The notes beneath the pieces are model-generated. The model searched no databases. It worked only from the letters and a program-made list of their open reading frames with translations, and was not told the origin of the DNA. A program made the translations under genes and the position numbers. DNA of 64,000 bases from an uncultured Gemmatimonadaceae bacterium (lineage in GTDB: Bacteria; Gemmatimonadota; Gemmatimonadetes; Gemmatimonadales; Gemmatimonadaceae), in contig CAWHHI010000020.1 of assembly GCA_963829055.1 (NCBI GenBank), positions 288,001-352,000 on the forward strand, given 5' to 3'. Shown here in pieces: positions 956 through 61,786 of the stretch. Within the stretch, counting starts at the first letter, position 1. Each line of letters begins with the position of its first letter.

Positions 956-1427
956 ATGCACCGTATTCTCGTGTGCTTGCTTATCGCAGGCGTCATGACG
1001 ATTCGGCCGGCGCCGATATTCCGCCCAGGCGCCAGCCGCTACGGCGACAGCGCCGCTGCCTTCCATCACGTTGCCGCCTGCGCTCGATCGCGTGCTTCGT
1101 GATTATGAGCGGGCGTGGCGGGCGCGGAATGCGGACTCGCTGGCGGCGCTGTTCACCCAGGACGGGTTCACGCTCTCGTCCAGCCAACCCATGCGACGCG
1201 GGCGCGCCGCCATCCGCGACGGGTACGCGAACAGCGGCGGGCCGCTCGCGCTCCGCGCGGTCGCGTACGCGGCGGACGACACCGTGGGGTACATCATCGG
1301 CGCGTACGCGCGAGAGAGCGGCGATCCGGATATCGGAAAGTTCGTGCTCGCCCTCCGGCGCACGTCCGGAGGGCCGTGGCGGATCGCCGCGGACATGGAC
1401 AATGGCAACGGTCCGCCACGTCGTTAG
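956..1427 (+). CDS. Secreted NTF2-like / DUF4440 protein (one frameshift near 1020)
   Basis: GAGGAGG RBS and ATG 956 with signal-like start; C-terminal frame 1071-1427 has YERAWRARNADSLAALFTQDG ... GKFVLALRR..WRIAADMDN. Confidence 0.75.
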
Positions 1428-1431
1428 GCTG

Positions 1432-2739
1432 TCAGAATTGCGCCGCCTCCGTCGACCCGGCGAGCGCGACCGTCGATGCGATACCGCCGGACACGAGCTG
1501 CGTCACCGCATCGAAGTACCCGGTACCGACCTCGCGCTGGTGGCGCGTCGCGGTGTAGCCTAACGCTTCGGCCGCGAACTCCGCCTCCTGCAGCTCCGCA
1601 TACGCGGCCATGCCGCGCGTCCGATACGACTCGGCCAGCTGGAACATGCCGTAGTTCAGCGAGTGGAAGCCGGCGAGCGTCACGAACTGGAACTTGTAAC
1701 CCATCGCCCCGAGCTCGCGCTGGAATCGCGCGATCGTGCTCGCGTCGAGCTTCTTCTTCCAGTTGAACGACGGCGAGCAGTTGTAGGCGAGCATCTTCCC
1801 CGGGAATTTCTCGTGCACGCTGTCGGCGAACTGACGCGCTTCGTCGAGATCGGGCGTCGATGTCTCGCACCAGAGGAGGTCCGCGTACGGAGCATAGGCA
1901 ACGCCGCGGGCGATCGCGCAGTCGAGCCCACCCGAGATGCGGAAGAAACCTTCCGGCGTTCGCTCGCCCGTGATGAAGGGGCGGTCTCGCTCGTCGACGT
2001 CGCTCGTCAGCAGTCGCGCGCTGTCGGCATCGGTGCGGGCGATGATCACGGTCGGCACGTCGAGCACGTCGGCGGCGAGCCGCGCGGCGACGAGGGTACG
2101 AATGAACTGCCCCGTCGGCAGCAGCACCTTGCCGCCCAGGTGGCCACACTTCTTCTCGGACGAGAGCTGATCCTCGAAGTGCACGCCCGACGCGCCCGCC
2201 TCGATCATCGCCTTCATCAGCTCGAACGCGTTCAGTGGACCGCCGAACCCTGCCTCCGCATCCGCCACGATGGGCGCGAACCAGTAGTGCTCGCCGCGCT
2301 TGCCTTCGGATGCTTCGATCTCATCGGCTCGCATGAGCGCCTGATTGATGCGCCGCACCACGGATGGAACGCTGTTGGCCGGATACAGGCTCTGGTCCGG
2401 GTAGGTCTGTCCCGAGAGGTTCGCGTCGGCGGCGACCTGCCAGCCGCTGAGATAGATGGCCTCGAGTCCGCCGCGGACCTGCTGGACGGCCTGGTTGCCG
2501 GTGAGTGCGCCGAGTGCGTGGACGTAGTCGCGCGTCGTGAGCAGCTCCCAGAGCCGCCGTGCGCCGACCTGCGCCAGCGTATGGTGTACGACGACCGAGC
2601 TGCGCAGGCGCTCGACGTCCTCGGTGGTGTACGGGCGCTGAACGCCGGCCCAGCGCGACTCGGCGCCACCGACTGGCGTGGTGGCGTCAGCGTTAGGCAG
2701 CACCGGGTCGGTCGTCAGGTCGTTGATGATGGTCGCCAT
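1432..2739 (-). CDS. aceA: Isocitrate lyase
   Basis: [10 protein letters not shown] active-site motif, [22 protein letters not shown]; intact 435 aa. Confidence 0.98.
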
Positions 2740-2831
2740 CGCGTTGTCCTCTGGAGTTCGTGTGATTGCCGCGCAATGACGCCGTCATCTGTGACGTCGC
2801 CGGCCGCGTCCGTGGAGTCGGTCGGATCAGG

Positions 2832-4542
2832 TCAGTCGAGCCGGTCGTACGCGACGACCGTGAGGAATTCGCGCAGGTCGTAGTCGAGCGTGAGCGACGA
2901 GAAGATCTCGCACGCGTCGTCGAAGTGGCCGGTCTGGAACGCGTCCTCGCCGACGTCGCGCCGGATGGCGGTCACCTCGTCCTCGATCATGGCGGCCACG
3001 AGGCGCGGGCAGACCTCGCGGCCGTCATCGAGCCGAGCGCCGTGACGAAGCCATTGCCAGAGCTGCGCCCGGGAGATCTCCGCGGTCGCGACGTCTTCCA
3101 TCAGGTTGTACAGCGGGACCGCGCCCGCACCGCCGAGCCACGCGGCGAGATAGCGAATGCCGACGCGGATGTTGAGGCGGAGTCCATCCTCGGTGCGAGG
3201 TCCCGTCGGGATGCCTAACAAGTCTTGCGGCGGTGACGTGGACGTCTTCGCGGCGGACGTGACGCTGGTCGTCGCCGGTCATTCCGGCGGCGAACGCGTC
3301 TCGTGCGACGAGCACGAGCGCCGGGTGCGCGACCCAGGTGCCGTCGTGTCCGTCACCGGCCTCGCGCTGCTTGTCCGCGGCCACCTTCTCGAGTGCCGCG
3401 GCGTTCGCGAGCGCATCATCACGCACGGGGATCTGCGCCGCCATGCCGCCGATGGCGAACGCATCTCGGCGGTGACACGTGCGGACGACGAGCTGCGTGT
3501 AGGCCCGCATGTTCGGCTGCGTCATGGTGACCGCGGCCCGATCCGGGAACACCGCGCCGGGGTCGTGGCGACGCATCTTGATCGAGCTGAAGATGTAGTC
3601 CCAGCGACCGCAGTTGAGCCCCGAGGCATGCTCGCGGAGCTCCCACAGGATCTCGTCCATCTCGAACGCCGCCGGCAGCGTCTCGATGAGCACCGTCGCG
3701 CGGATCGTGCCGTGCGGGATGCCTAACGTGTCCTGGGCGTGGCGGAAGACGGTGTTCCAGAAGCGCGCCTCGCGATGACTCTCGAGCTTGGGCAGGTAGA
3801 AGTACGGGCCCGTTCCGCGCTCGACGAGCGCGTGCGCGTTATGGAAGAAGTAGAGACCGAAATCCACGAGGGCAGCCGGCACGGGCCGGCCGTCGAGCAG
3901 CAGGTGGTGCTCCATGAGGTGCAATCCGCGCGGCCGCACGACGAGCGTCGCGCGCTTCGGGGCGAGCCGGTAGGACTTGCCCGTCACGGGGTCCTCCAAC
4001 GCGATGGTGCCGCGCACGGCGTCGCGCAGGTTGACCTGGCCGTCGATGATGTTCTCCCAGGTCGGCGAGCACGCGTCCTCGAAGTCCGCCATGAACACGT
4101 CGGCGCCGGAGTTGAGCGCGTTGATCATCATCTTGCGATCGACCGGCGCGGTGATCTCGACGACGCGGCGCCGGAGGTCGGTGGGGGCCGGTGCCACCGT
4201 CCATTCGGCGTCGCGGATCGATTGCGTCTCGGGCAGGAAGTCGAGTCGGTCTTCACCGCGCTCGAGGCGTTCTCGCCGGTCGGCGCGGGCCGCCAGGAGC
4301 TCGCGAACCGCAGGTCCGAAGCGGTCCACGAGGTCGGCGACGAACGCCAGCGCTTCCGGCGTGAGCACGACGGCCGACCCGCCCGGCGCCGCTCGGCCAA
4401 CGGGGTGGCGGACGTCGACCCGGCGCGCGGTGGCGGCGTCGGCGCCGCTTGGCTCGGAGCCGCTTGGCGACGATGCCACGGACACCGGATGGCGTGGCCC
4501 GCGCGGGAATTCGGGCTCGAATCGAAGCGGTTGCGCTGTCAT
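2832..4542 (-). CDS. aceB: Malate synthase A (frameshift near 3222)
   Basis: [39 protein letters not shown] and [19 protein letters not shown] across two frames; likely ATG 4542 with GAGGA RBS. Confidence 0.95.
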
Positions 4543-4788: not shown

Positions 4789-6228
4789 GTGGCAGACCCC
4801 GTGTTCCTTGGCCGACGCATCCGGTCGCTCCGCGTGCGACTTGGCGTCAGCCAGGCCGACCTCGCGAAGCGACTCGGGATCTCGTCGAGCTACCTCAACC
4901 TCCTGGAGCACGACCGGCGGCCCGTCACCGCTCCGCTCCTGCTCGAGCTGTCCCGCGTCCTCGACGTCGACCTTCGCGTTCTTGCCGGAGGCTCCGCGGA
5001 CGCCGAGCTGGTGGCGACGCTCACCGAGATCTTTGGCGAGCCCCTGTTCGAGGATCATCCGCTGACCGCCGCGGACGTGCGTGCGCTCGTCGCCGCGAGC
5101 CCCGACGTCGCGCGCGCGATCGTCCGCCTTCACGAGGGCTACGCGAGCACACGGGCGTCACTGGAGATGCTCGGTCACCAGCTGCTCGACGACCCCCAGG
5201 AGCTCGGCAACCTCGACCGCGCTCGACTCTCGTCGGAGCAGGTGTCGGACTTCATCCAGCGCCACGGCAACTACTTTCCGACGCTCGAGACCGAGGCGGA
5301 CCGTCTGCTCGCGGACAGCGGTGGCGACGGCGAGGATCTCTTCGGCCGCCTAACGCGGTACCTCGAGCGGACGCACGGGGTCCGCGTGCGCACCGTGACC
5401 GTCGGCGAGATGCGCGGCGCCGTCCGTCGCTTCGATCCCGAGCGCCGCGAGCTCCAGCTTTCCGAGATCCTCCGGCGCGGGTCACGGAACTTCCAGCTCG
5501 CCGTTCAGGCCGCCCTTCTCGGCAGCTCGCGCGCACTCGAGGCGCTGACGGTCGACCCGAAGCTCCCGAGCGACGAGTCGCGCTCGCTCGCACGCGTCGC
5601 ACTGGCCGGCTACCTCGCCGGTGCCGTGCTCATGCCGTACGACGCGTTCCTCCGCGCGGCCGAAGCGGAGCGATACGACATCGAGCTGCTCGGTCACCGC
5701 TTCCGCGTCGGCTGGGAGCAGACCTGTCACCGCCTCACGACGCTCCGACGTCCGGGCGCCGAGGGTGTGCCGTTCTACATGCTGCGCGTGGACATCGCGG
5801 GGAACATCTCCAAGCGCTTCAGCGCGGCAGGCATCCGGTTTCCGCGATTCAGTGGGCTGTGCTCACTGTGGAACGTACATGCGGCGTTCCTGCAGCCTGG
5901 GCGTGTCCGCGTGCAGCTCTCGCGGATGCTCGATGGACACACGGTGCTGGCCGTCGCGCGCACGGTGCAGCGGCATTCGGGCAGCTACAAGGCGCTCGAG
6001 GCGCCATACGCCGTGGGCATCGGCTGCGATTCGTCCCACGCGCGCCGACTCGTCTACTCCGACGGGCTCGACATCGACAATGCGGCGGCGGCGGTGCCGA
6101 TCGGCATCACCTGTCGGCTGTGCGAGCGTGCGGATTGCACCGCGCGCGCCGTGCCGTCGCTCGGAGGCGCGCTCCGGATCGATGAGAACGTACGCGGCGT
6201 GTCGTTCTTCGCGCCGGTGCCTTCATAG
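4789..6228 (+). CDS. ramB: RamB/ScfR (short-chain fatty acyl-CoA) family regulator: XRE HTH + central domain + C-terminal Cys cluster
   Basis: LGISSSYLNLLEHDRRP HTH, EQTCHRLTTLRRPG, RVDIAGNISKRFS, PIGITCRLCERADC; divergent from aceBA. Confidence 0.88.
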   Translation: MADPVFLGRRIRSLRVRLGVSQADLAKRLGISSSYLNLLEHDRRPVTAPLLLELSRVLDVDLRVLAGGSADAELVATLTEIFGEPLFEDHPLTAADVRALVAASPDVARAIVRLHEGYASTRASLEMLGHQLLDDPQELGNLDRARLSSEQVSDFIQRHGNYFPTLETEADRLLADSGGDGEDLFGRLTRYLERTHGVRVRTVTVGEMRGAVRRFDPERRELQLSEILRRGSRNFQLAVQAALLGSSRALEALTVDPKLPSDESRSLARVALAGYLAGAVLMPYDAFLRAAEAERYDIELLGHRFRVGWEQTCHRLTTLRRPGAEGVPFYMLRVDIAGNISKRFSAAGIRFPRFSGLCSLWNVHAAFLQPGRVRVQLSRMLDGHTVLAVARTVQRHSGSYKALEAPYAVGIGCDSSHARRLVYSDGLDIDNAAAAVPIGITCRLCERADCTARAVPSLGGALRIDENVRGVSFFAPVPS

Positions 6229-6635: not shown

Positions 6636-9600
6636 CTAGACTTCGAGCCGATCTCCAGGCCGCGCCGCCACGGCATACAGCGCAGGCATCAGGTAGACGC
6701 TGATCAGCAGCCGCGAGAACAGCCCACCGACGATCACGAGCGCGAACGGCCGCTGCGAGTCCGACCCGACCCCGCTCGACAGCGCGGCCGGCAGCAGGCC
6801 TAACGCGGCGACGAGCGCGGTCATCATGATCGGCCGGAGCCGCAGCAGCGCCGCCTCGCGACGTCGCGTCGGCGATACTCTTCCCCGTCCGCCGCAGCTC
6901 GTTCACGTACGAGATGTAGACGATCGCCGTCTGCACCGACACGCCGAACAGCGCCAGGAACCCGATCCCCGACGACACCGAGAACGGCGTTCCCGTAAGC
7001 TCGAGCGCGAGCAACCCGCCGATCGGCGCCGAGAGCACCACGCCCACGACCGTGATGAACGGGAACTTGAAGTTGTTGTAGAGCGCGAACAGGATCACGA
7101 AGATCAGCGTCAGCGTCACCGGCAGAATGAACTGCAGCTGCGCGCGCGACGCCGTGTACTCCTCGTACTCGCCGCCCCACACGACGCGATAGCCGGCCGG
7201 CATCGGCACCGCCGCGGCCACCTTCCGCTGCGCCTCCTGCACCGCGCCCGCGAGATCTCTGCCCTCGACCGAGTACTGGACTCCGATGAACCGGGAGTTG
7301 TCCTGCCGGTAGATGAACGACGCGCCGTTCGCGAGCTGGATGTCCGCGAGCTCGCGCAGCGGCACGCGCTGCCCGTCCGCCGTCGCGACGAGAATGTTGC
7401 CGATCTGCTCCGGCGTCTCGCGATACTGCGGCTGCGAGCCGAACGACGAGATCGAACAGCCGCTCGCCCTGCGCGACCTGCGTCGCGGCCGCTGCCGCCG
7501 ACCGCGGCCTCGATCAGCCCGTTGATGTCGGCGACGTTGATCCCGTAGCGCGCGATCTTCGCCCGGTCGATGTCGATCGTCAGGCTCGGCTGACCGAGCT
7601 CCTGCACCACCGTCACGTGCTTCACGCCGCGCACCTGGTCGAGCACGCGCTTCACCGCGCGCCCCTTCTGCTCGAGCACCGCGAGGTCGGTGCCGAACAC
7701 CTTCACGTCGAGCGAGCTCTTGAGCCCCGTCTCCGCTTCGTCGACCGCGTCCTCCGCCGGCTGCGTGAAGTTGAACGTGATGCCCGGGAACACCTTGAGC
7801 TTGTCGCCCACCGCCGCGATGAGCTCGGGCCTTCGTCGCGATACGCGCCGTTCCACTCGCTGTACGGCTTGAGCCCGACGTAGAACTCGGCGTTGAAGAA
7901 GCCCGTCGGATCGGTGCCGTCATCGGGACGGCCGTGCTCCGACGCGACGACCGTCACCTCGGGGAACGAGCGCAGGATCTCGCGCACCTGCGGCACGATC
8001 TTCGACGACTCCTCGAACGAGATCGTGTACGGCATCGTCGCCCGCACCCACAGCGCGCCCTCGTCGAGCTTCGGCATGAACTCGGCGCCGATGCGCGGGA
8101 TGAGCAGCATCGAAAGCGCGAACACGGCAGTCGACAGCGCCGATCGTCCACCACGGGCGCGCGAGCGCACGCGTCAGGCCGCGCGCATACTGCGCGCGGA
8201 TCCACTCGTAGACGGGATTCCGCCGCTCGCGCACGCCGCGCTCGCAGCAACCACGCGCACAGCACGGGCAAGCAGCGTCAGCGTGACGATGAGCGCGCCG
8301 ATCAGCGCGAAGATCGTCGTGTCCGCCATCGGCTCGAACAGCTTGCCCGACGGTCCGCGCAGCACGTAGATCGGCAGGAAGCTCGCGATGATCACCGCCA
8401 CCGCGTAGAAGATCGGCCGGTCCACCTCGGCCGCCGCGGCAATGATCGTGTGCACGACGCCGAGCCGTTCCACCTCAGGGTCAGCCAGCCGTCGATAGAT
8501 GTTCTCGACCATGACGACAGCGCCGTCGACGAGAATGCCGAAGTCGATCGCGCCGATGGACAGCAGGTTCGCCGGAATGTCGCGCAGGTCGAGGCAGATG
8601 AACGCGAACAGCAGCGACAGCGGAATCGTCACCGCGACGATGAGCCCGGACCGGAAGTCGTACAGGAAGAAGATGAGGACGATCGACGACGAGCACGATG
8701 CCGCGAAGCAGGTTGTCCTCGACCGTCCGCGTCGTCAGGCGAATGAGGTCGCTGCGATCGTAGAACGGAACGATCTTCACGTCCTTCGGCAGGATCTCGT
8801 TGTTCAGCTCGTCGCGTCTTCTTCTGGATGCCCTTGAGAACGGTCTGCGCCTGCTCGCCCGTGCGCAGCGTGACGACGCCCTCGACGGCGTCGTTCTGAT
8901 TCTGGAAGCCGAACTGGCCGAGTCGCGGCGCCGCGCCGATCACGACCTGCGCCGATGTCCTTCACGAGCACCGGCGTTCCGTCGTGCACGGCGAGGACGA
9001 CGTTACCGATGTCTTCCGTCGTCGCGACGCGGCCGAGGCCGCGCACGTAGTAGAACTGCCCGCCCTCGGAGTAGAAGCCGCCGCCGGCGTTGCCGTTGTT
9101 CGCGCCGAGCGCCGTCGCGACGTCGCGGCACGCTGAGCCCGGCGCCGGCGAGCTTCGCCGGATCGATCAGCACCTGGTACTGCATCGTCTCGCCGCCTAA
9201 CGACTCGAGGTCGGCGACGCCGGGCACGGACTTGTAGCCGCGATCGATCACCCAGTCCTGCAGGATGTGCAGATCCCGCGCGGAACGGTCAGGGCTCTGC
9301 AGCACGTAGCGATAGACCAGCCCCGACGGCGAGAACAGCGGCGACACGCCCGCCGACACGCCCTCCGGCAGCTCGACGTCGGGCACGCGCTCGAACACGC
9401 GCTGGCGCGCGAAGTAGTTGTCGGTGCCGTCCACGAACGTGAGCGTGACGTCGGACAGCCCGTACAGCGAGACCGAGCGCATCACCCGAAGTCCGGGCAG
9501 ACCGTTCATCTGCAGTCTCGACGGGCGCCGTGATCAGCCGCTCGACCTCCTCCGCGGCGTGACCCGGCCACTGCGTGATGATCTCCACCATCGGCGGCGA

Positions 9601-9858: not shown

Positions 9859-11102
9859 TGGCTCTGCGCGAACTGCACGAACAGCGCGCCCTCGGAGATG
9901 ATGCGTTCGCCCGCCTTGACTCCGGCCTTCACCTCGTACTGGTCGCCGACGCGAGAGCCGAGCGTGATCTGGCGCCTCGCGAACGAGGTGCCCTTCGCGC
10001 TCGTCACTTCCACGAACACGAACGGCAGGTTGTCGTCGTCGCGCAGCACCGACGTCACCGGGATGAGCAGTCCGCTCCGTCCGCGCGACGCGTGAATCGC
10101 GACCTGTACGTACATGTCCTTCTTGAGCAGTCGCCGCGTGTTCGGCACCACGACGCGAACCGGCGTCGCCTTCGTGTTCGGATCCACGAGCGCGGCGATG
10201 TACGCCACGCGTCCGACGAACGGCGTCGGCGATGCGGTCGTCGTCACCTCCGCACGGTCGCCCACCTGCACGGCCGAGAGGTCCGACTCGAACACGCTCG
10301 TCTGTACCCACATCGTCGCGAGGTTCGCGATCGTGTACGTCGGCGTGGACCCCGCCTGCAGCAGCTGCCCCGGGTTGATGAGCCGCTCGACGACGGTACC
10401 GTCGATCGGCGCGCGAATCGCCGCCTGCATCGTCGGCACGTCCTTGCCGTCGCGGAGCGCCGCGATCGACGCGTCGTCCACGCCTAACGCGCGGAGCTGC
10501 TGCAGCGCGGCGTCACGGTCGGCCCCGGCCGCCACAGCGTCCGTCTGCGCCTGCTCGAGGTCGCGCTTGGCGATCGCGTCGTTCTTCCAGAGCTGCTCGT
10601 CGAGATCCGCGACGCGCTTGGCCTGCACCCACGCGGCCTGCGCTTTCCGGAAGTCGGCGACCGTGGACGCAAAGTCCGGCGAGGACACGAGCGCCAACGC
10701 CTGCCCCGCGCGCACCGACGCGCCCGGCTCCGCCAGAATGCGGGTGACCGGCCCGGAGATCGGCGCGAGCACCTGCGTGGACACGTCGGCGTCGAACTGC
10801 GCCGTGCCCGTCGCCTGAATGGTCGGCCGGAAGTCCGACTGCGCCACCGGCTCGATGTGGAGCCGCGCCAGCTGCTCGGCCGGAACGATCACGGTGCCGG
10901 CGCTCGCGCCGTTCCCCGTATCCGCCGGCGACGCTGCGTTCGCCGCCGGTGTCCCGGCCGCGCTGCGCGCCGAATCGGACTCGGCGTTCGATTGCGAGCA
11001 GGCACCTAACGCGAAACTCGTCACCGCGATCGTCGTCCACGCAACCGCCTGTCGGCCAACCGAGCGCGAACGCGCGGGTGTGATTGCCTGATTACCGCGC
11101 AT
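9855..11102 (-). CDS. RND efflux periplasmic adaptor (MFP, CzcB/CusB-like)
   Basis: Lipoprotein-like ALGAC, APISGPVTRI, IRAPIDGTVVER, VDPNTKAT; lies between TolC and RND genes. Confidence 0.92.
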   Translation of the reverse strand: MRGNQAITPARSRSVGRQAVAWTTIAVTSFALGACSQSNAESDSARSAAGTPAANAASPADTGNGASAGTVIVPAEQLARLHIEPVAQSDFRPTIQATGTAQFDADVSTQVLAPISGPVTRILAEPGASVRAGQALALVSSPDFASTVADFRKAQAAWVQAKRVADLDEQLWKNDAIAKRDLEQAQTDAVAAGADRDAALQQLRALGVDDASIAALRDGKDVPTMQAAIRAPIDGTVVERLINPGQLLQAGSTPTYTIANLATMWVQTSVFESDLSAVQVGDRAEVTTTASPTPFVGRVAYIAALVDPNTKATPVRVVVPNTRRLLKKDMYVQVAIHASRGRSGLLIPVTSVLRDDDNLPFVFVEVTSAKGTSFARRQITLGSRVGDQYEVKAGVKAGERIISEGALFVQFAQSQ

Positions 11103-12434: not shown

Positions 12435-12570
12435 GCCGATTGCCCGTTGACCGGATGAGCCACGTGACCGGAACGGTCGCGTGGATGAGCTCCGTACGGC
12501 GTCGGCCTAACGAGTCGATGGCCTGCGGGCGGCGCTACCGGATAGGCAGCGCTCACGTTCCCGCGGCGGT

Positions 12571-12983: not shown

Positions 12984-13149
12984 CGAGTGAGTGTTACGAA
13001 ACTACGACCCCGTTACGCGAGAGACCAGCACGGCGTTGGTTTCGGGGGAGAACGGCCCCGGCGAAGGCTCACCGGGGCTACCTTGCCCGTGCCTAACTCG
13101 CCGGGCCGGGCTGCAGGCACCAACCAGCGCGCAGCGCTATTTTGGCTTC

Positions 13150-14930: not shown

Positions 14931-14932
14931 TC

Positions 14933-48126: not shown

Positions 48127-48459
48127 TTAGGTGGCCTGGAGCGCATACGCGATCGCGACCGCGATGCGCTTCCACTCGCCCGTCTCGGCGTCGAGCTGTC
48201 GCCGCCCGGCGGCCGTGAGGCGGTAGTACTTGGCGCGCCGGTTGTTCTCCGAGGTGCCCCACGAGGCACTCAGCCAGCCCGCTTCTTCCATCCGGTGCAA
48301 TGATGGGAAGAGCGATCCCGGTTTGACCTGGAACGTGCCGCGCGTGATCTGCTCGACCCGTCGGGCGACGCCGAGCCCATGCAGCTCACCGAGGGCGAGC
48401 GACTTGAGGATCAGCAGGTCGAGCGTGCCCTGGAGGAGGTTGGTGCGCGTGTCGGTCAT
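48127..48459 (-). CDS. padR: PadR family regulator (acidobacterial subfamily)
   Basis: LLQGTLDLLILKSL..LHGLGV..GSLFPSL..ENNRRAKYYRLTAAG. Confidence 0.95.
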   Translation of the reverse strand: MTDTRTNLLQGTLDLLILKSLALGELHGLGVARRVEQITRGTFQVKPGSLFPSLHRMEEAGWLSASWGTSENNRRAKYYRLTAAGRRQLDAETGEWKRIAVAIAYALQAT

Positions 48460-50201: not shown

Positions 50202-52639
50202 ATGGACACCCTGATCAACGACGTCCGCTTCGCCGTTCGAAGCCTCCTTCGCTCACCGAGCTTCGCGCTCACGGCCGTTCTCGCGCTCGGCCTCGGAATC
50301 GGCTCCACCGCCGGCGTGTTCAGTCTCCTCGAGGGCGTGGTGCTCCGGCCACTGCCATTCCGCGAGCCCGAAAGGCTGGTGACGATCTGGGACACGAACC
50401 GCGAGAAGTCGCTGACTCACGAGCCGATCTCGCCGGTCACGTTCCACGACTATCGCGGACTGTCCGGCGTGTTTCAGGATGCCGCGGCGTGGTGGCGTCC
50501 GCAGCTCAACCTCGCGGACGAGACCGGCGACCCGATTCGCGTCTCCGCTGTGGAAGCGTCGGACAACCTGTTCCACGTGCTCGGTGTCCAGCCCGCGATC
50601 GGTCGCGGATTCACGATCCATCCCGGACCTGTTCGGCCCCGAGCACGAGGCGATCATCAGCCACCGGCTCTGGCAGACCCGATTCAGCGGCGATGCCGCC
50701 GTCATTGGCCGCGGCGATCCGGCTGAACGGCTTCACGTATACCGTCGTCGGGATCATGCCGCCGGGCTTCGGCTTCCCGGGCGAGACGGACCTCTGGCAG
50801 CAGTTGCAGTGGAATCTCCACAACCACAGTCGCGGCGCGCACTTCATGGAGTCCGTCGCGCGCCTGCGACCCGGCGTCACTCCCGAGCGCGCCAACAGCG
50901 AGCTCGCCGCGCTCGGCACTCGACTCGGCGACGAGTTCCGCGGGACGAACGCCGGGTGGACGCCGAAGGTCATCGAGCTCGACCGCGAGACCGCGGGCGT
51001 GTTCCGTCCAGGACTGTTCGCGCTGTTCGGCGCATCGGCGCTGCTGCTGCTCATCGCCTGCATCAACGTCGCGAACCTGCTGCTCGCGCGCGCGAGCGCG
51101 CGTCGGCGCGAGGTCGCGCTGCGCGCCGCCATTGGCGCGAGCCGAGGGCGGCTCGTTAGGCTCTTTCTCACGGAGAGCGTGGTGCTCGCGGTGGCCGGCG
51201 CCGTCGTCGGAGTCGCCGTCGCGGTGCTGAGCGTGAAGACGCTGCTGGCCGCGTCTCCCGTGCGCATCCCGCGCGCCGACGCGATCGGCATCGACGCACC
51301 CGTGCTCCTCTTCGCGACGCTCATCGCTGCATTGACAGCGCTCGCGTTCGGACTCGTACCGGCGTTCATCATGTCGCGCGCCGAGCTGCAGGATGCGCTC
51401 AAGGATGGCAGCAAGGGCAGTGGCGCTCAGGGTCGCACGATGCGGAGCGCGCTCGTGATCGCGGAGGTCGCGCTCGCCGTGATCCTGCTCTCCGGCGCGG
51501 GGCTGCTCGTGCGCAGCGTGTCGCGGATGCTTCGTGTGAGCACCGGCGTCGACCCGGCGTTCGTCATCACCGCCGACATGCAGCTGCCTGACGCGGCGTA
51601 TCCGCGAGTGGCCGCGCGTCGATCAGTTCTACGCGTCGCTCGTGCGCGGGATCGCCAATCGTCCGGGGATCGTCGCGGCCGGCACCACGACGTTCCTGCC
51701 GCTCGAACCTGGGTGGCGACTCCCGTACACCGCGGTCGGCGCCGCTCCGGTCCCCACCGGTGATGAACCGACTGGCGCAGGTCCATTCCGCGGACGGGGG
51801 CTACTTCGCGGCCATTCGCGCGCCCATCGTACGCGGGCGCACGTTCGATGCGCATGACGACGCGACGGCGAACCCGGTGGTGATCGTGAACGAGACGATC
51901 GCGAAGCGACTGTGGCCCGGCGTCGATCCCGATCGGCAAGCGTGTGAGCCTGACGATCCGTCAGATCGGTCCGCTCGCGCGCCGCGTCGTTGCCGGCGAC
52001 GAGCACGAAGTCGTCGGCGTCGTGCGAGACATTCGGAACACGTCCGTGCGCGACGAGCCTGAACCGGCGATGTACTTCGCGCCGGGCCAGTTCCCTGCTC
52101 GCAAGATGTATCTCGTCGTGCGCGGACGCGGCGACGTCGCGCAGCTCACCGCCATCATCCGGAAGAGGTTCGCCGGCTCGACCCGACGCTCCCGTTAGGC
52201 GACGTCCAGCCGATGAGCCGGGTGCTCGGCGCAGTCGCCGATCCGCCGCGGTTCGTGATGATGCTGATGACGGCGTTCGCCGTTCTCGCGCTCACGCTCG
52301 CGGCCCTCGGGATTTACGGCATGCTCAGCTACGCGGTGAGCCACCGCCGGCGCGAGTTCGGAATCCGCCTCGCCCTCGGCGCTCGGCCGTCGGGCGTGGT
52401 TGGGCTCATTCTGCGCGAGGGGCTCACCCTCGTGATCGCGGGCTGTGTCATCGGCGATTGCTGGCATGCTCGCGGCCGGCCGCTCGCTCTCCGGCTTCCT
52501 GTTCGAGGTGAAGCCCTGGGACCCGACGACGGTCGCTGGCGTTCTGGCGGTGGTGCTCGTCGTCGCGACACTCGCGTGTCTCATTCCGGGACGTCGGGCA
52601 TCCGCGGAAGACCCTGCCGGAGCGTTGCGCGCGGACTGA
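50202..52639 (+). CDS. ADOP-type ABC permease lacking the N-terminal prefix (frameshifts)
   Basis: MDTLINDVRFAVRSL..ALGLGIG, LLIACINVANLLLAR, GIYGMLSYAV..REFGIRLALGA, ALRAD*. Confidence 0.9.
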
Positions 52640-53063
52640 CACTCCAGGAATAGCTGTTGTCACGGCTGACTGGCAGCGGACAGATCGATTGGGAATCCAT
52701 AATATCGTGAACGGCCTCCTGGACTGCGGGGGCCGTTTGCGTGCGTCCGCCCTCATGCCGACCGTGTTTTCGGGTCGCGCACGAACAACGCCGATAGCGG
52801 TTCCCACGTGTTTCCCGGGTCGCCATGTGGACAAGTAGGTCGCTCGGTTGGATATTCGAGTCGAGCCGCCGTCAAGAATGAAATGAGTGGGACGAGCCGT
52901 ACACAGCCATTCCCGTTGCCCCGGGCCTGCCGAACGGCCCCCGCTGTCTACCGGTTCACCTCGGAGCTATTCTTGACGCGCGCGCCTAACGCGCATTGTT
53001 CCGCAGGGTATTTCTGAGCGAGCCGCTGCTGGTTTCGCCCGCGAAAGCATTCGAGGCAAATAG

Positions 53064-53469: not shown

Positions 53470-55906
53470 GTGTCAAATTCTTCGATCGTCACCGAGCTGT
53501 CGGCCGCGGTGCGCGCGCTGCGACGAGCGCCGCTGGTTTCCGGTTCCGCAATCCTGTGCGTCGCCCTCGGCATCGGGGCAACCGCCGCGATCTCGAGCGC
53601 GATCAGTCGCGCACTGCTGCAGCCGCTGCCGTTCCGAAGTCCCGAGCGACTGGTCACCGTGTACCGCACGACGCCGCACTTCGACACCGGGCCGTTCTCG
53701 CCGGCGAACTACCTCGACCTGGCGCGCGAAACGCCGTCAGCTCGAAGCGCTCGCCGCCATCACGCCGACGACGAGCCTGTTGCAGCTGACCGACGAGGCG
53801 ACACAGGTCACCGTGAACCGCGTGACGGGCAACGTGTTCCCCATGCTCGGTCTGCGTGCGCTACGCGGGCGCTTGCTCAACGCCGCTGATGATCAGGCCA
53901 ATGCGCCACTCGCTCGCCGTGATCGGCGAGGAGCTGTGGCGGGAGCGTTTCGGCGGCGATCCCGCGCTCGTCGGGAAGCCAATTCGTCTCGACGGGCAGG
54001 CGTACACCGTCGTCGGGCATCGCGCCTCGCGAGTTCGGCATTCCGCACGGCTCGCAGGTGATTCGCTCGCAGGTGTGGGTCCCCATGCAGTTCTCGCCGA
54101 ACGAGCTGGCACAGCGCGGCAGCAACTACCTGTATGCGTTAGGCAGGCTGGCTCCCGGCGCGACCCTCCAGTCGGCCCACGCGGAGCTGGTCCGGCTGTT
54201 CGACGGCATCGTCGCCGCGAACCCGGAGTTGCGAGGCGAGCAGGTGCGCGCGCTCTCGCTCGTTGGTGAAGGCGTGCGGACGGTGCGCAAACCGCTGATG
54301 CTGCTGTTCGGCGCCGTGTGCATGGTGCTGCTCATCGCCGCCACGAACGTCGCCAGCCTGCTGCTCGCGCGATCCGTGCATCGGCGGCGTGAGCTCGCCA
54401 TCCGTTCGGCGTTAGGCGGCAACCGGCACCAGCTCATGCGACCGGTGCTGAGCGAGAGTCTCGTGATGACGGCTATCGGGCTGCTCCTCGGGCTGGGGTT
54501 GGCGTGGGGCGGCGTCCGCACCATCGGCTCGCTCGCCGCCGCTCGTCTCCCTCAGCTCGCGGGGCTCTCGGTGGACTGTCCGCGTGATCGCGTTCGCCAT
54601 CGCGCTCGCGGTGCTGGTGGCGCTCGTGTGCGGCGGCCTGCCGGCGTGGCGAAGTGCGGCCGTCGATCCGCAGGACGCGCTTCGCGACGGGCGCGGCGGC
54701 GGGACGAGCCGGGCTCACCATCGCGTGCTCGGGTCGCTCGTCGTGGCCGAAGTCGCGCTGTCGCTCATGCTGCTGATCGGCGCGGGGCTCGTCCTCAAAG
54801 GGTTCTCGCAGCTGCTCTCGAAAGACCCCGGGTTCGACCCGAACCCGATCCTCACGCTGCAGGCGACCGATCTCGCCCGACCGCTATCCCGACGGCAACA
54901 CCGTAGAGCGCTTCCTCGAGCCGGCGCTGCAGAAGATTCGCGAGATCCCCGGCGTCGACGCGGCGGCATCGATCTCCCTCATCCCGTACGTCAACTGGGG
55001 CTGGAACTTCAACATCCGCTACGAGGGGCAGCCGGGCACCGACCGGACGCGTCTCCCGATGACGGAGAATCGCGTTGCGACCCCCGAGTTCTTCCAGGTC
55101 ACGAAGCAGCGCCTCATCGCCGGCCGACTCCTCGGCCCCCAGGACGACGGGCGACCGGAATCGCCGGCGGTCGTGGTCGTGAATCAGGCGCTCGTGAAGC
55201 GCGATTTCCCCGGTGGCGATCCGATCGGCAAGCGCTTCTACACGGGCGACACCACGTTCGCGACGATTGTGGGCGTCGTCAGCGATATCAGGAATTTCGG
55301 ACCGATCGAGGACCCGCACGGCGAGGTGTATCGGCCGTTCCGCCAAGCGGGCCAGGGATCTTCGAGCTTCGCCATCATGGTTCGAACGCGCCGCGGCAAC
55401 CCCGCGGACCTCACCGCGGCGGTTCGCGCCGCCGTGCGATCCGTCGATCAGCAGGTCGCGATCACCGATGTGAAGACGATGCCTGAGGTCATGGCCCTCA
55501 GCACGGGAAGCGCGCGCTTCTACCTGATCCTGCTGGCGAGCCTTCGCGTGCGTGGCGCTCGTCCTGGCGGTGTCGGGCATCTATGGAGTGCTGAGCTACG
55601 CCGTGGCCCAGCGGACGCGCGAGTTCGGAATCCGCAGCGCCCTCGGCAGCACACCGGCGACAACGCTCGCGCTCGTCACGCGGGAAGGGCTACGCCTCAT
55701 CGGCATTGGAGTGGCGCTCGGCCTCGCCGGCAGCATGGCCGCGACTCGACTGCTCAGCGCCATGCTCTACGGCGTCAGCCCACTCGACCGAGCCACATGG
55801 GCCGCGACTACGGCCGCGCTCATGGTCGTCGGGCTGATTGGCCACGCTCCTACCCGCATTTCGGGCAACGCGCGCGGACCCGTTGCTCGCGATCAGGGCG
55901 GACTGA
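53470..55906 (+). CDS. ADOP-type ABC permease lacking the N-terminal prefix (frameshifts)
   Basis: AVRALRRAP..VALGIGATAAI, LLIAATNVASLLLAR, GIYGVLSYAVAQRTREFGIRSALG. Confidence 0.9.
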
Positions 55907-56917: not shown

Positions 56918-58381
56918 TCAGGGCACCAGAACAACCGTATACGGCCGCTCACCCACCGGGATCGTCGCAGTCACGCGTCGTTGTGCCGTCGAGATGACGC
57001 TCACGCTGTTGGATCGACCGTTCGCCACGTACAGCGTCGCGCCGTCCGGCGTGAGCGCCACACCCCACGGGCGCTGCCCAACGGGGATGGACGCGACGAC
57101 GGACCGACCAGTGACGTCGACGACGCTGACCTGATTCGCGCGACCGTTCGCGATGTAGGCGAAGCGACCATCCGGCGAGATGGCGATGCCCGTCGGCTTC
57201 GTCGTCCGGTCACCGATCGTGATCGTGGCCGTCACCGAGTCCCGCCGCACGTCGAAGACGTGCACGAGGCCACCGTCCTCCGTACTCACGAGCCCCCACT
57301 GCCCGTTAGGCGCGAACACGATGAATCTCGGACGCGCACCGACGTGCATGACGCCGACACGCTGGCCACTCGACGCATCGAGCGCGGTCACCGTCGAGTC
57401 GGTCTCCCCGGTGATGTAGACCTTCGTCCCACGCGGCCCAACCAGAATCCCTTCCGGCTCGCGCCCGACGGCGGCGCGGAACCGCATTCGATGTCCCGTG
57501 ACCGCGACCGCCGTGGCCGAGTCGAGCGCTTCGTTGGAGACGTAGATCGTGCGACCGTCCGGGCTGACCGAGACCTGCTCGGGATCGGCGCCGACCGGGA
57601 TCGTGTCGACGACGCGACGTGCGGCGATATCGATGACACCAACTGCGTTGTCCTTGCCTAGTGCGACGTACGCACGACGCCCATCCGGGGCGACGGCAAG
57701 TCCGCGTGGCCGGGCCCCAACGTCGAAGGTCGCGACGACGGCGTTGCCCTCGATGACGCTCACGGTGTTCCCGCCCTCGTTGCTCACGAGGCCACGCTGC
57801 GCACGAGCCGTGGAGGGCGCGGTGCCTAACGCCACCAAGCCCAGCACGCCCACCGCGACGGACGCGCGCCGCGTCGGGATCCGCCGCCTGCGCTCTCGAC
57901 GCATCACCCACCGCTCGGCCAACACTGCGTCCAGTCCCCACGTGCGTCCAGCGCCGGCGAAGAGGAACGCGAGCATCATGGCCAGCAGCATCACGTGGAA
58001 CCCTTGTTGCCCTGAGCTCATGTGCTGGACCGCGAGCCCGTATGTGATGACCTGCAGTGCCCCGAATACCGCGCCAACTTCGGTCAGGAGCCCGAACGTG
58101 AGGGACAGCCCTACGGCGACTTCACCGAGCGCCGTGAGGTGCGCGTACGCGTGGTTAGGCACGACGGTGCCGAGCAGGAACGCCTTGTATGCCGGGAACG
58201 GATTGTCGGCGGCATAGCGTGCGATCAGCTTCGGCATGGTGGCGATCCACCGCGGCGACGCCACCGGTATGGGAATGAAACCCGCGAGCAGCGCGATCGA
58301 GATCTTCGTGAGGATACTCTTGAGGAACCAGAGTCCGACGGTGATGCGCAGCAGCGCCAGCCAGCGATCCGGGTGGCGCAT
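56918..58381 (-). CDS. DoxX/DoxD-like membrane domain + YVTN beta-propeller (single ORF, possibly two genes)
   Basis: LALLRITVGLWF..GEVAVGLSLTFGL..AGAGRTWGLD, followed by repeats such as IPVGQRPWGVALTPDGATLYVAN. Confidence 0.8.
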   Translation of the reverse strand: MRHPDRWLALLRITVGLWFLKSILTKISIALLAGFIPIPVASPRWIATMPKLIARYAADNPFPAYKAFLLGTVVPNHAYAHLTALGEVAVGLSLTFGLLTEVGAVFGALQVITYGLAVQHMSSGQQGFHVMLLAMMLAFLFAGAGRTWGLDAVLAERWVMRRERRRRIPTRRASVAVGVLGLVALGTAPSTARAQRGLVSNEGGNTVSVIEGNAVVATFDVGARPRGLAVAPDGRRAYVALGKDNAVGVIDIAARRVVDTIPVGADPEQVSVSPDGRTIYVSNEALDSATAVAVTGHRMRFRAAVGREPEGILVGPRGTKVYITGETDSTVTALDASSGQRVGVMHVGARPRFIVFAPNGQWGLVSTEDGGLVHVFDVRRDSVTATITIGDRTTKPTGIAISPDGRFAYIANGRANQVSVVDVTGRSVVASIPVGQRPWGVALTPDGATLYVANGRSNSVSVISTAQRRVTATIPVGERPYTVVLVP

Positions 58382-58936: not shown

Positions 58937-58982
58937 GTGCCTGAACTCGATAGTGCCTGAACCCGATAGCGCCTAACGCCGA

Positions 58983-59034: not shown

Positions 59035-60454
59035 TTAGAAGGCGACCACGCCCTCCAGCATGAATCCGTCGAACTTGGCGCCGTGGCGGATGTCGGTGAT
59101 CGGGAAGTTGCTGTACGTCTGTTTCACCCACTCGCCCTTCATGAGCAGGATCGGGGTGATGAACCACCCGCCGGCGAGGGCCGCGCGCTCGGCGCTGGCG
59201 TCCGACGTGTACCCTTTGAACCGGCCCTCGACCGTGTTGTAGCGGGCGCCGACGTACGCCTTCTCGTTCTTGAGGAACCGGTAGATCACGTCCCCGGCGT
59301 ACTGGTCGAACGACCGCTTGCCCGTCTCCGTCGTCTGCGCGCCGCTCGCCTGCTCGGCCACGCCGAAGAACTCCAGCCCGCGGTACTTCACGAACGGGTT
59401 GATCTGGTAGCTGTGCACCGCGCTGCCGAACGCCGGGTCGAACATGCCCGACATCTTCTGCGCCGCCTCGGTCGCCGCCGTATTCTCGACCACGAGGTAG
59501 TAGCGCGAACCGGCACGATCACCGGCGAACAGCGTCTGGTTGGCCGAGCGCGTCTGGCTGAACAGCGATCCCGTTAGGCGGGTCCGCAGGTTGGGCGTCA
59601 GCTGGCGGTCGACGCCGACCTTGCCGTAGAACGCGGGCGACCGCTTCGCCGGCGCCGACACCTGGCCGCGGATCTCGCCGCCCGTGATGCCGACCATGCC
59701 CAGCAGACCCTTGCCGCGGAGGTACGCCTCGCCGCCGACTTCGGTCGTGAACGGATCGAGGATCAGGTTCCCGACGAACGCGTTGTGCATGGCGTTGCCG
59801 TTGTCGGTGCGACGGAAGTGCGAGTCGCCGTAGTTGATCTCGAAGTGCCCGAACTTGAGCGAGACGTAGTCCATCATGCGTCTCGAGCGCCTTCACCTTG
59901 ATCGGCGAGCCGTCGATGAGCAGGAAGCCGTCCTTGACCCACGTCTCGTTGTGGTGGCGCGAGGACAGGTACGAGGTCAGCGCGACGCGGATCCCCGGCG
60001 CGATCTGCGCGTTCAGGTACAGGTTGGCCGTGGCGTTGTTGAAGCCGTTGCCGATCGACATGAGCTGGTTGGCGTCGACCTTCGTGATCGGATCGATCTT
60101 CGGGGCGGCGCCCGTCTCATGCGAGAGCCCCTGGAACTGCTGCGTGAAGGCGGCGCCCCAGCTGAGCTGGAAGCCCGTGAACGGCGTCGCGTCGCTCTTC
60201 GGCGCCTCGAAGGTGTTGATCCCGCGCTGATCGATCGGGTGGATGTGCTGAATCACCGTCTTGGGCACCAGGCTCGCGACGGTCGTCGCGGCCGCGGCGG
60301 AAGAGTCGGGGGTCGCCGGCTTCGCCTCGGACTTCGTGGTGGTCGCCGGGCGGCTGATGGTGTCGGCGGACGCAGTGTTCGGGTTCGCCTGCCCCATGGC
60401 TGGAACAGCAGCGAAGAGCGTAGCGCTCAATGCGAGGACAGGGGTGAGTCTCAT
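59035..60454 (-). CDS. Outer-membrane beta-barrel / porin-like hypothetical protein (frameshift near 59880)
   Basis: Signal peptide, FNNATANLYLNAQ..YLSSRHHNETWVKDG, amphipathic strands, C-terminal Phe (GVVAF). Confidence 0.75.
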
Positions 60455-60525
60455 AATCGTGGTCTCCGGTGAAGTATTCGAGACAGGCAGTCTTTGATTG
60501 GTGAACCGATCTCGATCAGTCTCGA

Positions 60526-61122
60526 TCAGTCTTTGAGCAGGAGGTCGAAGCCGACCTTCACGCGCTCGTCGACTTTCATGGTGCCGAGCATCAGCGTGGG
60601 TGGCTTGAGGCCCCACTCGGTCATCCTGAGCTCGTGCGTGCCCACCACGTGCAGCATGCCGGACGCGCCCTCGCTCGCGTTCACGGTCATGGAGACCGGC
60701 TTCTCCACGCCACCCATCGCGAGCGTGCCGGCGAGCGTCACGCGGACGACGTCCGCCTGCTTCGCGAGATCGTACGACGCGAGCTTGAAGACGATCGTCG
60801 GGTTGGTCTTCGCCTTGAGCGCCTTGAGCATGTGCTCGTTCATCGTGCCGTTCTTGCAATCGAGGCGCTCGGTGTTCACGCGGATCTCCACCGCGGTCAC
60901 CGCTTTCTCGCCGGCGAGGACGGCCGTCGTCGCGCCGGGCACGGACTCGACGTTCGCGTCGAAGGCGGTCGCGCTGCACTCGAACGAGCGCACCGTGGAG
61001 CTGCCGCTGATCCAGAGGCGGCTCGCGGGCTGAAGGTCCAGGGCGACCGCGCGCGGTGTCGCCGCCATGACAGCGGGAGCGATGCAGAAGAGGGGGAGTG
61101 CTCTGGAAATGCGCCGGCGCAT
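60526..61122 (-). CDS. YceI family protein
   Basis: Signal peptide, SRLWISGSSTVRSFEC, MNEHMLKALK..PTIVF, GTLAMGGVEK, MTEWGLKPPT. Confidence 0.88.
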   Translation of the reverse strand: MRRRISRALPLFCIAPAVMAATPRAVALDLQPASRLWISGSSTVRSFECSATAFDANVESVPGATTAVLAGEKAVTAVEIRVNTERLDCKNGTMNEHMLKALKAKTNPTIVFKLASYDLAKQADVVRVTLAGTLAMGGVEKPVSMTVNASEGASGMLHVVGTHELRMTEWGLKPPTLMLGTMKVDERVKVGFDLLLKD

Positions 61123-61282
61123 TGTTGATTCTCCGTGAGAAGGAACCCGGTCGCGCAGTGGCCGCGACTCTGGTCTCATATTCGGCTCGGCGGGTCGGCG
61201 CATCAGTCGGGAGGATCGCGCCACATGCGTCGGGTTCGTACGCTCGATGCGTCAGGCAAACCCTGAGCGGAGCAGGTGACAG

Positions 61283-61786
61283 CTACGGCGTGACCTCGCC
61301 CGTGGCGTCGCCCAGGGAATGGCGCGCGGGCATCGCCGTTCGCGCCTCGCGTCCGGTCAACTCGTCCGGCCGTACCTTGAGGACAACGGTACGCTCGGGT
61401 GTGGGATCCCCGTCACCTAACGCGCTCGGTACGAGCGTACGCAGGTACGCGACCGCCTGCCGGTACGACTCGCGTTCGACCGGAGGTCCGTCGTCACGAA
61501 GCACGTAGACGGTGCCGTGCGCGACGACACTCCGCCAGTCGAAAAGCCCGTCGACCTCGTCCACCTCCAGCGCAATCCACGGGGAGTGGGCGAGCGCCGC
61601 GAGCTTGGAACCGGGTGCAGTCCGCATGTAGATCGCCCCATCCGGATACACGTAATGGATAGGCTCGATGTCCACGCGCCCGTGGAACGTGTAGGCAATC
61701 CGCCCGACGTTATGGCGAGCGAGCAGCTGCTCGACCTCGCGCGGATCGAGCGTACGGAATGTCGGTGTGGGATTTCCCGTCGGCAT
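61283..61786 (-). CDS. Pyridoxamine 5'-phosphate oxidase-like flavin-binding protein
   Basis: LLARHNVGRIA..IEPIHY..RTAPGSKL..LEVDEVDGLFDWRSVVAHG..LTGR. Confidence 0.85.
   Translation of the reverse strand: MPTGNPTPTFRTLDPREVEQLLARHNVGRIAYTFHGRVDIEPIHYVYPDGAIYMRTAPGSKLAALAHSPWIALEVDEVDGLFDWRSVVAHGTVYVLRDDGPPVERESYRQAVAYLRTLVPSALGDGDPTPERTVVLKVRPDELTGREARTAMPARHSLGDATGEVTP

Follow-up and report, generated by a model that had tools for sequence, protein, structure and literature searches.

To our knowledge, words repeated genome-wide far beyond chance are known from few groups only: the DNA uptake sequence (DUS) of Neisseriaceae, the uptake signal sequence (USS) of Pasteurellaceae, HIP1 (highly iterated palindrome 1) of cyanobacteria, and Chi. 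The DUS is read by the minor pilin ComP, and both DUS and USS often occur in inverted pairs that act as terminators. Chi sites, which may be enriched in phages as well, show a lower excess and a wider spacing than the 49-fold, sub-kilobase recurrence described below. HIP1, GCGATCGC, is over-represented 15- to 300-fold (PMC5861425), is palindromic and is read by two methylases (PMC13756078), and roles in nucleoid structure or in DNA exchange have been proposed for it (PMC5861425, PMC13756078). This report concerns a further word, GCCTAACG, encountered in a 64-kb stretch of DNA from an uncultured Gemmatimonadaceae bacterium (contig CAWHHI010000020.1, positions 288,001 to 352,000; the window) and throughout the genome to which that stretch belongs. 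An earlier note on the window had set its core, CCTAAC, beside DUS and HIP1 as established cases. The comparison is apt as a likeness and fails as membership. Literature searches for the 8-mer, for an over-represented 6-mer, and for uptake or HIP1-like words in Gemmatimonads returned no description of it.

The word and its abundance

The source genome (G000) comprises 7.78 Mb in 20 contigs, with 66.7% G+C and an estimated completeness of 86%; the window corresponds to G000:C20:288001-352000. Its gene content and sequence similarity point to Gemmatimonadales; isocitrate lyase, whose best matches were metagenome-assembled genomes of that order, proved too conserved for a closer placement. Genes are our own crude calls (7,952, covering 79% of the genome), and the codon and site-class counts given here are equally rough. 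On both strands of the window together, CCTAAC occurs 60 times, compared to a mean of 5.33 and a maximum of 10 in 100 dinucleotide-preserving shuffles. The claim that the motif is abundant in all frames, stop codons included, is borne out: copies occupy four open frames, both stop frames, and the spacers. Genome-wide, the 6-mer is found 7,103 times, split nearly evenly between strands (3,494 and 3,609). The excess of the 6-mer is real, but it is not the true unit. A guanosine precedes the core in 79% of cases and follows it in 90%, defining the 8-mer G-CCTAAC-G, or GCCTAACG, of which there are 5,004 copies, 49 times the order-2 Markov expectation. Among 8-mers with at least 300 copies it ranks first by observed over expected, while in raw frequency it is only about 30th in this GC-rich genome. 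The word is non-palindromic, its reverse complement being CGTTAGGC. Variants at the end positions are enriched as well, ACCTAACG 13-fold and GCCTAACA 10-fold over expectation. GCATAACG stands at 4.4-fold, and the remaining neighbors one change away at expectation or under it. Genic and spacer copies share the consensus Y-G-CCTAAC-G-M. An underlying longer repeat or mobile element was considered and rejected, since the flanks carry no information past about 10 bases and do not differ between the two settings.

Along the genome, the word is evenly spaced and avoids close neighbors. There are 548 gaps below 200 bp where chance predicts 1,191, and more gaps of 300-1,500 bp than expected. Word pairs less than 100 bp apart are inverted in 48 and 47 cases for the two arrangements and direct in 119, so that G000 shows no excess of terminator-type inverted pairs in this range. 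Strand polarity of the Chi type or of the FtsK-orienting polar sequence type was likewise rejected, as same-strand runs are as numerous as in shuffles on 12 contigs; word skew on contig C16, which has a flip of both GC skew and gene strand near 550 kb, stays at about -0.16 to +0.03. Three blocks of 31-48 kb near contig ends are free of the word (G000:C6:6854-55038, G000:C11:7377-44055 and G000:C6:591809-623330). The first two, which were annotated, encode FtsK, aromatic amino-acid synthesis, glutamine synthetase and dihydroxy-acid dehydratase. With such housekeeping genes inside and no prophage genes, an origin of these blocks as prophages was discarded; possible origins are chimeric assembly or binning, or the recent import of chromosomal DNA.

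Codons, stops and residues bent to the word

Within called genes, the 6-mer is read genome-wide as TTA-GG at 1,961 sites, CCT-AAC at 1,402, CTA-AC at 817 and GTT-AGG at 588. It straddles a gene boundary at a stop codon 564 times and is intergenic or in uncalled DNA 1,733 times. The corresponding figures for the 60 window sites are 16, 9, 5, 5, 6 and 19, the six stop-spanning copies being CGT-TAG (three), ACC-TAA (two) and CCC-TAA (one). Codon choice shifts sharply with context. TTA supplies 1991 of 17582 leucine codons (11.3%) before GGN, compared to 982 of 176254 (0.56%) elsewhere; CTA rises from 1.8% elsewhere to 7.2% before ACN, CCT from 7.4% to 44.9% before AAC, and GTT from 8.2% to 46.4% before AGG. 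Fully 67% of the TTA codons in the genome stand in TTA-GG, as do 16 of the 20 in called window genes. The remark in the earlier note that GTT and CTA appear otherwise avoided needs correction: most copies of either codon lie outside the motif context, which holds just 4% of GTT (8.4% of valine codons) and 21% of CTA.

A genome-wide comparison of dipeptides with codon usage, which the earlier note had proposed, gives the same picture. Codings that spell the word account for 38.9% of Pro-Asn pairs (6.7% expected), 11.3% of Leu-Gly (1.5%), 7.2% of Leu-Thr (2.2%) and 3.6% of Val-Arg (0.31%). The outcome named beforehand as fatal to the idea, TTA, CTA and AGG usage no higher in these dipeptides than elsewhere, did not materialize, because the rare codons are 4-20 times commoner inside the motif context than outside it. 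Stop codons are drawn in too: 372 of 984 TAA stops lie within CC-TAA-C and 267 of 2,045 TAG stops within GT-TAG-G. This excess in codon context supports a pressure directed at the DNA word rather than the protein. In every frame the word prevails over codon choice; it also captures stop codons and fills spacers with constant flanks.

The pressure was first described as creating the motif synonymously wherever the protein allows. Its DNA-level nature stands; its reach was overstated, as the word is present at only 9.8% of Leu-Gly, Pro-Asn, Leu-Thr and Val-Arg pairs (4,882 of 49,750) and close copies are avoided. Nor is creation purely synonymous. The Pro-Asn dipeptide is over-used 1.40-fold, ranking eighth of 400 dipeptides, and Pro-Asn-[GAVDE] about twofold. 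In the isocitrate lyase gene of the window, TTA-GGC at 1559 encodes Leu-Gly where six of nine other aligned taxa have His-Gly, and the isocitrate lyase of Verrucomicrobiae bears the same Leu-Gly word at that place, together with a second word that replaces two residues. The word thus alters amino acids at tolerant positions. An ortholog check for synonymous gain, suggested alongside the dipeptide test, was made in a cross-genus alignment with genome G304, with background divergence included in the counts: the residues touched are unchanged at just 15 of 52 coding sites found in G000 only and at 6 of 18 found in G304 only, and at the other 37 of the 52 they differ from the G304 ortholog.

Twenty individual sites had been listed with their reading. 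Seventeen have the frame assigned to them (1423, 1559, 2692, 3722, 5349, 14144, 16078, 37483, 43484, 45648, 46152, 47260, 48126, 49962, 51155, 54411 and 59573), and two more fit open frames that were not called as genes (26441 and 35094). Only 22017 was misread as CTA-ACG; it is CCT-AAC (Pro-Asn) in the open reading frame (ORF) 21804-23279 (-).

Relatives, a second phylum and phages

All six other genomes of the genus carry 2,501-5,112 copies. Among 401 sampled Gemmatimonadota genomes, only certain genera of G000's own family and a single genus from a sister family have high counts; in the rest, the word is rarer than its reversed-word control. One genus is mixed: three of its genomes (G240, G297 and G401) carry 3,479-4,141 copies, and the fourth (G293) carries 66. 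Within the genus of G000, at 79% DNA identity, 24 of 35 sites (69%) are kept, where a 6-mer would match by background alone in 28.7% of cases. In an alignment to the word-rich genus g43, covering 102 kb at 74.5% identity, the shared sites number only 8 of 83, compared to a 22.9% background. Kept within the genus yet rarely shared with g43, the word has thus built up independently in separate lineages and persisted where made.

The same word recurs outside the phylum. An uncultured Verrucomicrobiae metagenome-assembled genome holds 2,006 copies. Among the 36 nearest relatives listed for it, many show enrichment too, with up to 2,512 copies, while more distant relatives do not. Viral contigs were scanned for two copies 400-430 bp apart, yielding 80 loci with sequence, 15 of which carry at least 0.5 word copies per kb. 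One (locus L200) is a genuine tailed-phage fragment, with portal, large and small terminase and scaffold genes and 31 copies in 17 kb (1.8 per kb). A comparison of proteins common to word-rich phage loci and G000 gave one unrelated match.

No alternative "dialect" word was seen in word-poor relatives, within the small samples of 67 kb of G293 and 100 kb of G007. What these samples (loci L107-L116) do contain, in intergenic DNA, are local tandem arrays of 7-bp units, (CTGCTTT)n and (CGTCTAT)n, arranged as inverted pairs. In word-poor genomes of a sister family (G021:C95:188-23656, G021:C43, G019:C3), the 8-mer comes back on a single strand at intervals of 500-600 bp, through as much as 24 kb; this is probably a giant tandem-repeat gene and a different phenomenon.

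A proposed protein-binding array and its candidate reader

An array bound by a protein inside the cell is our tentative preference, though itself less likely than not; a drive through DNA uptake comes close behind, a by-product of repair or recombination improbable, and a Chi-like role very improbable. On the preferred reading, GCCTAACG would be a DNA-level signal at about one copy per kb, likely read by a putative sequence-specific DNA-binding protein. The reader would give word-bearing DNA a small advantage, such that changes creating the word spread and changes destroying it are lost; the advantage might lie in nucleoid organization or in tagging DNA as resident. For the majority of word-rich Gemmatimonadales, the probable reader is a basic protein of 100 residues, encoded at G000:C3:271467-271769, a candidate found by screening small basic proteins for the word upstream.

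Directly before the start codon of this gene in G000 stands CGTTAGGC-TGTTAGGC, and tandem word copies 8 bp apart abut the start codon in G000, G001 and G005, two or three in number (three in G001 and G005). Within G000:C3:271194-271769 (locus L245 700-1269), which takes in the gene itself, the promoter region also holds the near-variants GCATAACG, CGTTATG and GGTTAACG, and nine other genomes carry 17 word copies over 3.5 kb upstream of the gene. At E <= 1e-18, the protein was detected in 21 of 25 word-enriched Gemmatimonadales genomes tested, versus 6 of 83 non-enriched ones, and the family is conserved in 13 genera of the order. Its structural model has three strands, a helix and Lys/Ala-rich tails, at a mean predicted local distance difference test score (pLDDT) of 52.9, and no signal peptide is apparent by eye. 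The word-rich phage fragment also counts in favor of an intracellular reader.

Other evidence weighs against this reading. The small protein belongs to no Pfam family, and its poor model has no significant match in the PDB, the best being PC4 at E = 0.24. Searches with the single sequence and with a profile found no homolog in the word-rich genomes G240, G297, G401 and G304, the last of which is 100% complete and carries 4,469 word copies; nor was one found in five of five word-rich Verrucomicrobiae or in the 80 viral loci. Conversely, the protein is present in G151, G171, G056, G076, G258 and G381, where the word does not exceed its reversed-word control. It is neither necessary nor sufficient for the word. 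Since the genomes are kin, the association itself may rest on few events. A lineage-specific reader does not explain an identical word in two phyla, and the general pattern is equally compatible with a drive by uptake bias. As far as these genome comparisons go, the small protein is a plausible reader in one clade and not a universal cause; a different reader would have to serve the word-rich lineages that lack it, namely the Verrucomicrobiae and genera g40 and g43.

Two further leads were checked. Tandem-word operators in word-rich genomes without the small protein gave three matches, none at a promoter. An AP2 domain lead (Atlas score 0.86) was followed with PF00847, which was found in 0 of 36 genomes; the family is likewise found in no control genome, and the result is therefore uninformative. 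A bolder extension, which we consider unlikely, treats the word as a tag for "resident DNA" shared across a soil community: a putative, horizontally spread reader system would serve Gemmatimonadota and Verrucomicrobiota alike, and their phages would copy the word. Such motif-based recognition, of self DNA or of a partner's, would be of a new kind, and the integron recombination core would be either its source or its borrower.

A possible drive through DNA uptake

A second reading, only slightly less probable to us, takes the word for a DNA uptake signal, whereby biased uptake and recombination would spread word-creating variants by the molecular drive envisaged for DUS and USS. Like those words, GCCTAACG is short and non-palindromic, occurs at about one copy per kb (here some 0.9) equally on both strands, is evenly spaced, is written in every frame, where it affects both codons and residues, tolerates changes at its end positions in a graded manner, and is absent from some large blocks, here the three of 31-48 kb. 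The machinery is also encoded. ComEC was found in 35 of 35 genomes, and DprA, secretin and a ComEA-type HHH domain (HHH_3) were each found in five of five genomes of the panel used for cause searches, namely the word-rich G000, G304 and G240, the word-poor G293 and the word-rich Verrucomicrobiae genome G031. However, all four components are equally present in word-poor genomes and the machinery is therefore not discriminating. We know of no report of competence in Gemmatimonadota or Verrucomicrobiota.

Other differences set the word apart from DUS and USS. Those words are family-wide with dialects, whereas here the word is patchy within one family, to the point that a single genus is divided, and the two word-poor samples yielded no dialect. 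Terminator-type inverted pairs are not in excess, and the identical word extends to a second phylum and to phage. A tailed phage at such density would not be explained by transformation bias unless it is a long-resident prophage. Finally, the present word is not known to bias uptake, and no receptor for it came to light (pilins were not searched for). An uptake role has likewise been proposed for HIP1 in a 2026 paper (PMC13756078).

Repair, recombination and the integron core

The word could instead be a functionless product of biased mutation, repair or recombination, an explanation we find improbable. One route is methylation-linked short-patch repair, once proposed for HIP1; another is an integron-type tyrosine recombinase, a candidate because the word equals the integron core site. 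Specifically, its 7-mer GCCTAAC / GTTAGGC fits the attC consensus, for which PMC3053210 gives the core GTTRRRY and the inverse core RYYYAAC. About ten attC-like imperfect palindromes bounded by GCCTAACG...CGTTAGGC lie within 86 kb of G000 (C20:119252-205185) beside an integrase-like gene (C20:208008-208985; a borderline TIGR02249 match, 265.7 bits for a cut-off of 265). Environmental cassette arrays use the same boxes: three more loci of the viral-contig scan, L160, L153 and L177, filed as viral, are integron arrays in which GCCTAAC and GTTAGGC alternate 50-110 bp apart, with cassettes of 300-700 bp. An enzyme whose specificity is conserved across phyla would account for the identical word in two of them, an integrase or its remnants are seen in 19 of 20 word-rich genomes, and several gains are adjacent double changes from GCCGCACG to GCCTAACG.

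The bulk of the word does not behave as attC, however. The roughly 7,100 copies are single, in ordinary genes, and have no palindrome partner. Within 30-160 bp, 90 pairs are in attC order and 85 in the opposite order, and palindromes of the attC type (57-141 bp) bounded by the word are limited to the ten or so at C20:119-205 kb. A same-strand run of 11 sites beside the integrase-like gene was rejected as a cassette array, as it has no partner boxes and its sites are in coding DNA. Integron integrase is not supported as the driver, its presence not following word abundance: of 20 word-rich genomes, 17 score above the curated TIGR02249 cut-off, as do 12 of 16 word-poor ones. Through G429, one of those 16, this tally is the only one of our claims to draw on the four genomes flagged unpublished (G013, G424, G429 and G436). 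Precise recombination by an integrase, moreover, is not known to leave behind a scar from which the word could arise.

As for short-patch repair, Vsr (PF03852) was found in 0 of the 5 panel genomes. A methylase search confined to four families (PF01555, PF02384, PF00145 and PF02086) gave no family that occurs in each of the word-rich genomes G000, G304, G240 and G031; PF00145 is missing from the first three of them. A regular-expression screen for methylase motifs in our own gene calls gave 14 mostly irrelevant proteins. No single one-off neighbor of the word is specially depleted. The conservation of sites within the genus well above background points to retention, not continual replenishment, an argument used likewise for HIP1 by Xu et al. 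2018 (PMC5861425). HIP1 resembles the present word in length, in its order of over-representation, in the conservation of sites between genomes and in having no gene-level role. It differs in being palindromic and in its methylases, none of the four families sought here being common to the four word-rich genomes.

The weakest alternative is that the word, like Chi with RecBCD or AddAB, halts a helicase-nuclease and so protects resident DNA and phages that bear it; an over-represented short word rich in phage, word-free blocks that could be foreign DNA, and both orientations as two-ended breaks would require all suit this, but RecC (TIGR01450) and AddB (TIGR02786) were each found in 0 of 5 panel genomes, one of them word-rich and 100% complete, the word shows no replication-linked polarity, and its excess and spacing lie far past those of Chi, making such a role very unlikely.

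Sites in the window

The copies in the window are collected in Table 1. Two features of the same stretch deserve mention in their own right. Just past the acyl-CoA dehydrogenase gene, 14933-15047 forms a long, near-perfect hairpin (DNA fold -34 kcal/mol, z -4.6), parts of which have over 100 occurrences, 75-91% identical, across the other six genomes of the genus; it is a dispersed palindromic element resembling repetitive extragenic palindromes or miniature inverted-repeat transposable elements. At 6442-9509, an AcrB-type efflux gene is in pieces, a 307-residue piece (profile positions 788-959) followed by small ORFs, and the orthologous DNA of relatives aligns throughout; the fragmentation may reflect a frameshift, an assembly error or a fault of the gene caller.

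Table 1. The 60 copies of CCTAAC, by window position of the 6-mer, with the strand of the copy, its reading and the gene that contains it
Position	Strand	Reading or copy	Gene or frame	Remarks
920..925	-	CGTTAGGC	no called gene	
1423..1428	-	CGT-TAG (stop)	DUF4440 gene 1071-1427 (+)	
1559..1564	+	GCG-TTA-GGC (Ala-Leu-Gly)	isocitrate lyase 1432-2739 (-)	His-Gly in most other taxa
2692..2697	-	CCT-AAC (Pro-Asn)	isocitrate lyase 1432-2739 (-)	variable N-terminus
3214..3219	+	GTT-AGG (Val-Arg)	malate synthase 3025-4485 (-)	
3722..3727	+	ACG-TTA-GGC	malate synthase 3025-4485 (-)	common to G003, G014
5349..5354	+	CGC-CTA-ACG (Arg-Leu-Thr)	regulator gene 4789-6228 (+)	
6799..6804	+	GTT-AGG	AcrB-type piece 6442-7365 (-)	kept in G001, G002, G005; absent in G304
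9196..9201	+	TCG-TTA-GGC	ORF 9003-9509 (-)	kept in 4/4 genus relatives
10483..10488	+	GCG-TTA-GGC	HlyD-type gene 9855-11147 (-)	kept in 4/4 genus relatives
11005..11010	+	GCG-TTA-GGT	HlyD-type gene 9855-11147 (-)	kept in 4/4 genus relatives
12506..12511	+	word copy	no called gene	kept in 4/4 genus relatives
13092..13097	+	GCCTAACT	no called gene	
14144..14149	+	CCT-AAC	acyl-CoA dehydrogenase gene 13919-14983 (+)	
16078..16083	+	CCT-AAC	ORF 16027-16566 (+)	
17092..17097	-	TCG-TTA-GGG	ORF 17036-17374 (+)	
19013..19018	-	TTG-TTA-GGC	CheB-CheR-kinase gene 17535-21026 (+)	
21138..21143	+	word copy	no called gene	
22017..22022	-	CCT-AAC	beta-helix gene 21804-23279 (-)	
23034..23039	-	CCT-AAC	beta-helix gene 21804-23279 (-)	
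26258..26263	-	CGT-TAG (stop)	ORF 25717-26262 (+)	
26441..26446	-	TTA-GG	ORF 26190-27173 (+)	uncalled; reading holds if a gene
28637..28642	-	CGC-CTA-ACG	ORF 28396-28938 (-)	
28977..28982	-	word copy	no called gene	
29943..29948	+	TCG-TTA-GGT	BNR-repeat gene 29450-30379 (-)	
32037..32042	-	word copy	no called gene	
32268..32273	+	TCCTAACG	no called gene	
33219..33224	+	ACCTAACG	no called gene	
33767..33772	+	word copy	no called gene	
35094..35099	-	GTT-AGG	ORF 34665-35294 (+)	uncalled; reading holds if a gene
35841..35846	+	CGC-CTA-ACG	ORF 35791-36303 (+)	
37483..37488	-	GTT-AGG	ORF 37201-37494 (+)	
37691..37696	+	CCC-TAA (stop)	ORF 37507-37695 (+)	
40525..40530	+	word copy	no called gene	
41243..41248	+	TCG-TTA-GGT	MacB/FtsX permease gene 40939-43290 (-)	
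42155..42160	+	GCG-TTA-GGC	MacB/FtsX permease gene 40939-43290 (-)	
42791..42796	+	GCG-TTA-GGC	MacB/FtsX permease gene 40939-43290 (-)	
43484..43489	-	ACC-TAA (stop)	padR 43485-43820 (-)	
44073..44078	-	word copy	no called gene	
45158..45163	-	CCT-AAC	ORF 45065-45274 (-)	
45648..45653	+	GTT-AGG	MacB/FtsX permease gene 45414-48095 (-)	
46152..46157	-	CCT-AAC	MacB/FtsX permease gene 45414-48095 (-)	
47260..47265	+	GCG-TTA-GGC	MacB/FtsX permease gene 45414-48095 (-)	
48126..48131	-	ACC-TAA (stop)	padR 48127-48459 (-)	
49962..49967	+	GGC-CTA-ACG	CN-hydrolase gene 49123-50091 (+)	
51155..51160	-	GTT-AGG	FtsX-type gene 50693-51763 (+)	
52194..52199	-	CGT-TAG (stop)	ORF 51944-52198 (+)	
52985..52990	+	word copy	no called gene	
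54138..54143	-	GCG-TTA-GGC	ORF 54058-54906 (+)	
54411..54416	-	GCG-TTA-GGC	ORF 54058-54906 (+)	
57305..57310	-	CCT-AAC	beta-propeller gene 56918-58525 (-)	
57825..57830	+	GCG-TTA-GGC	beta-propeller gene 56918-58525 (-)	
58154..58159	-	CCT-AAC	beta-propeller gene 56918-58525 (-)	
58972..58977	+	word copy	no called gene	
59573..59578	-	CGC-CTA-ACG	ORF 59035-59877 (-)	
61416..61421	+	GCG-TTA-GGT	ORF 61283-61786 (-)	
61839..61844	-	word copy	no called gene	
62645..62650	-	word copy	no called gene	
62843..62848	-	CGTTAGGG	no called gene	
63912..63917	+	word copy	no called gene	

Implications

The two soil phyla that carry the word are little studied and mostly uncultured. Its spelling matches that of the integron core, and it is strong enough to reshape codon use, the choice of stop codons and even proteins. 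The word is already usable as a sharp marker of foreign or mis-binned DNA in these genomes and as a signal linking phages and plasmids to their hosts. If its reader is found, the word would offer a new handle on DNA exchange or chromosome organization in soil bacteria.

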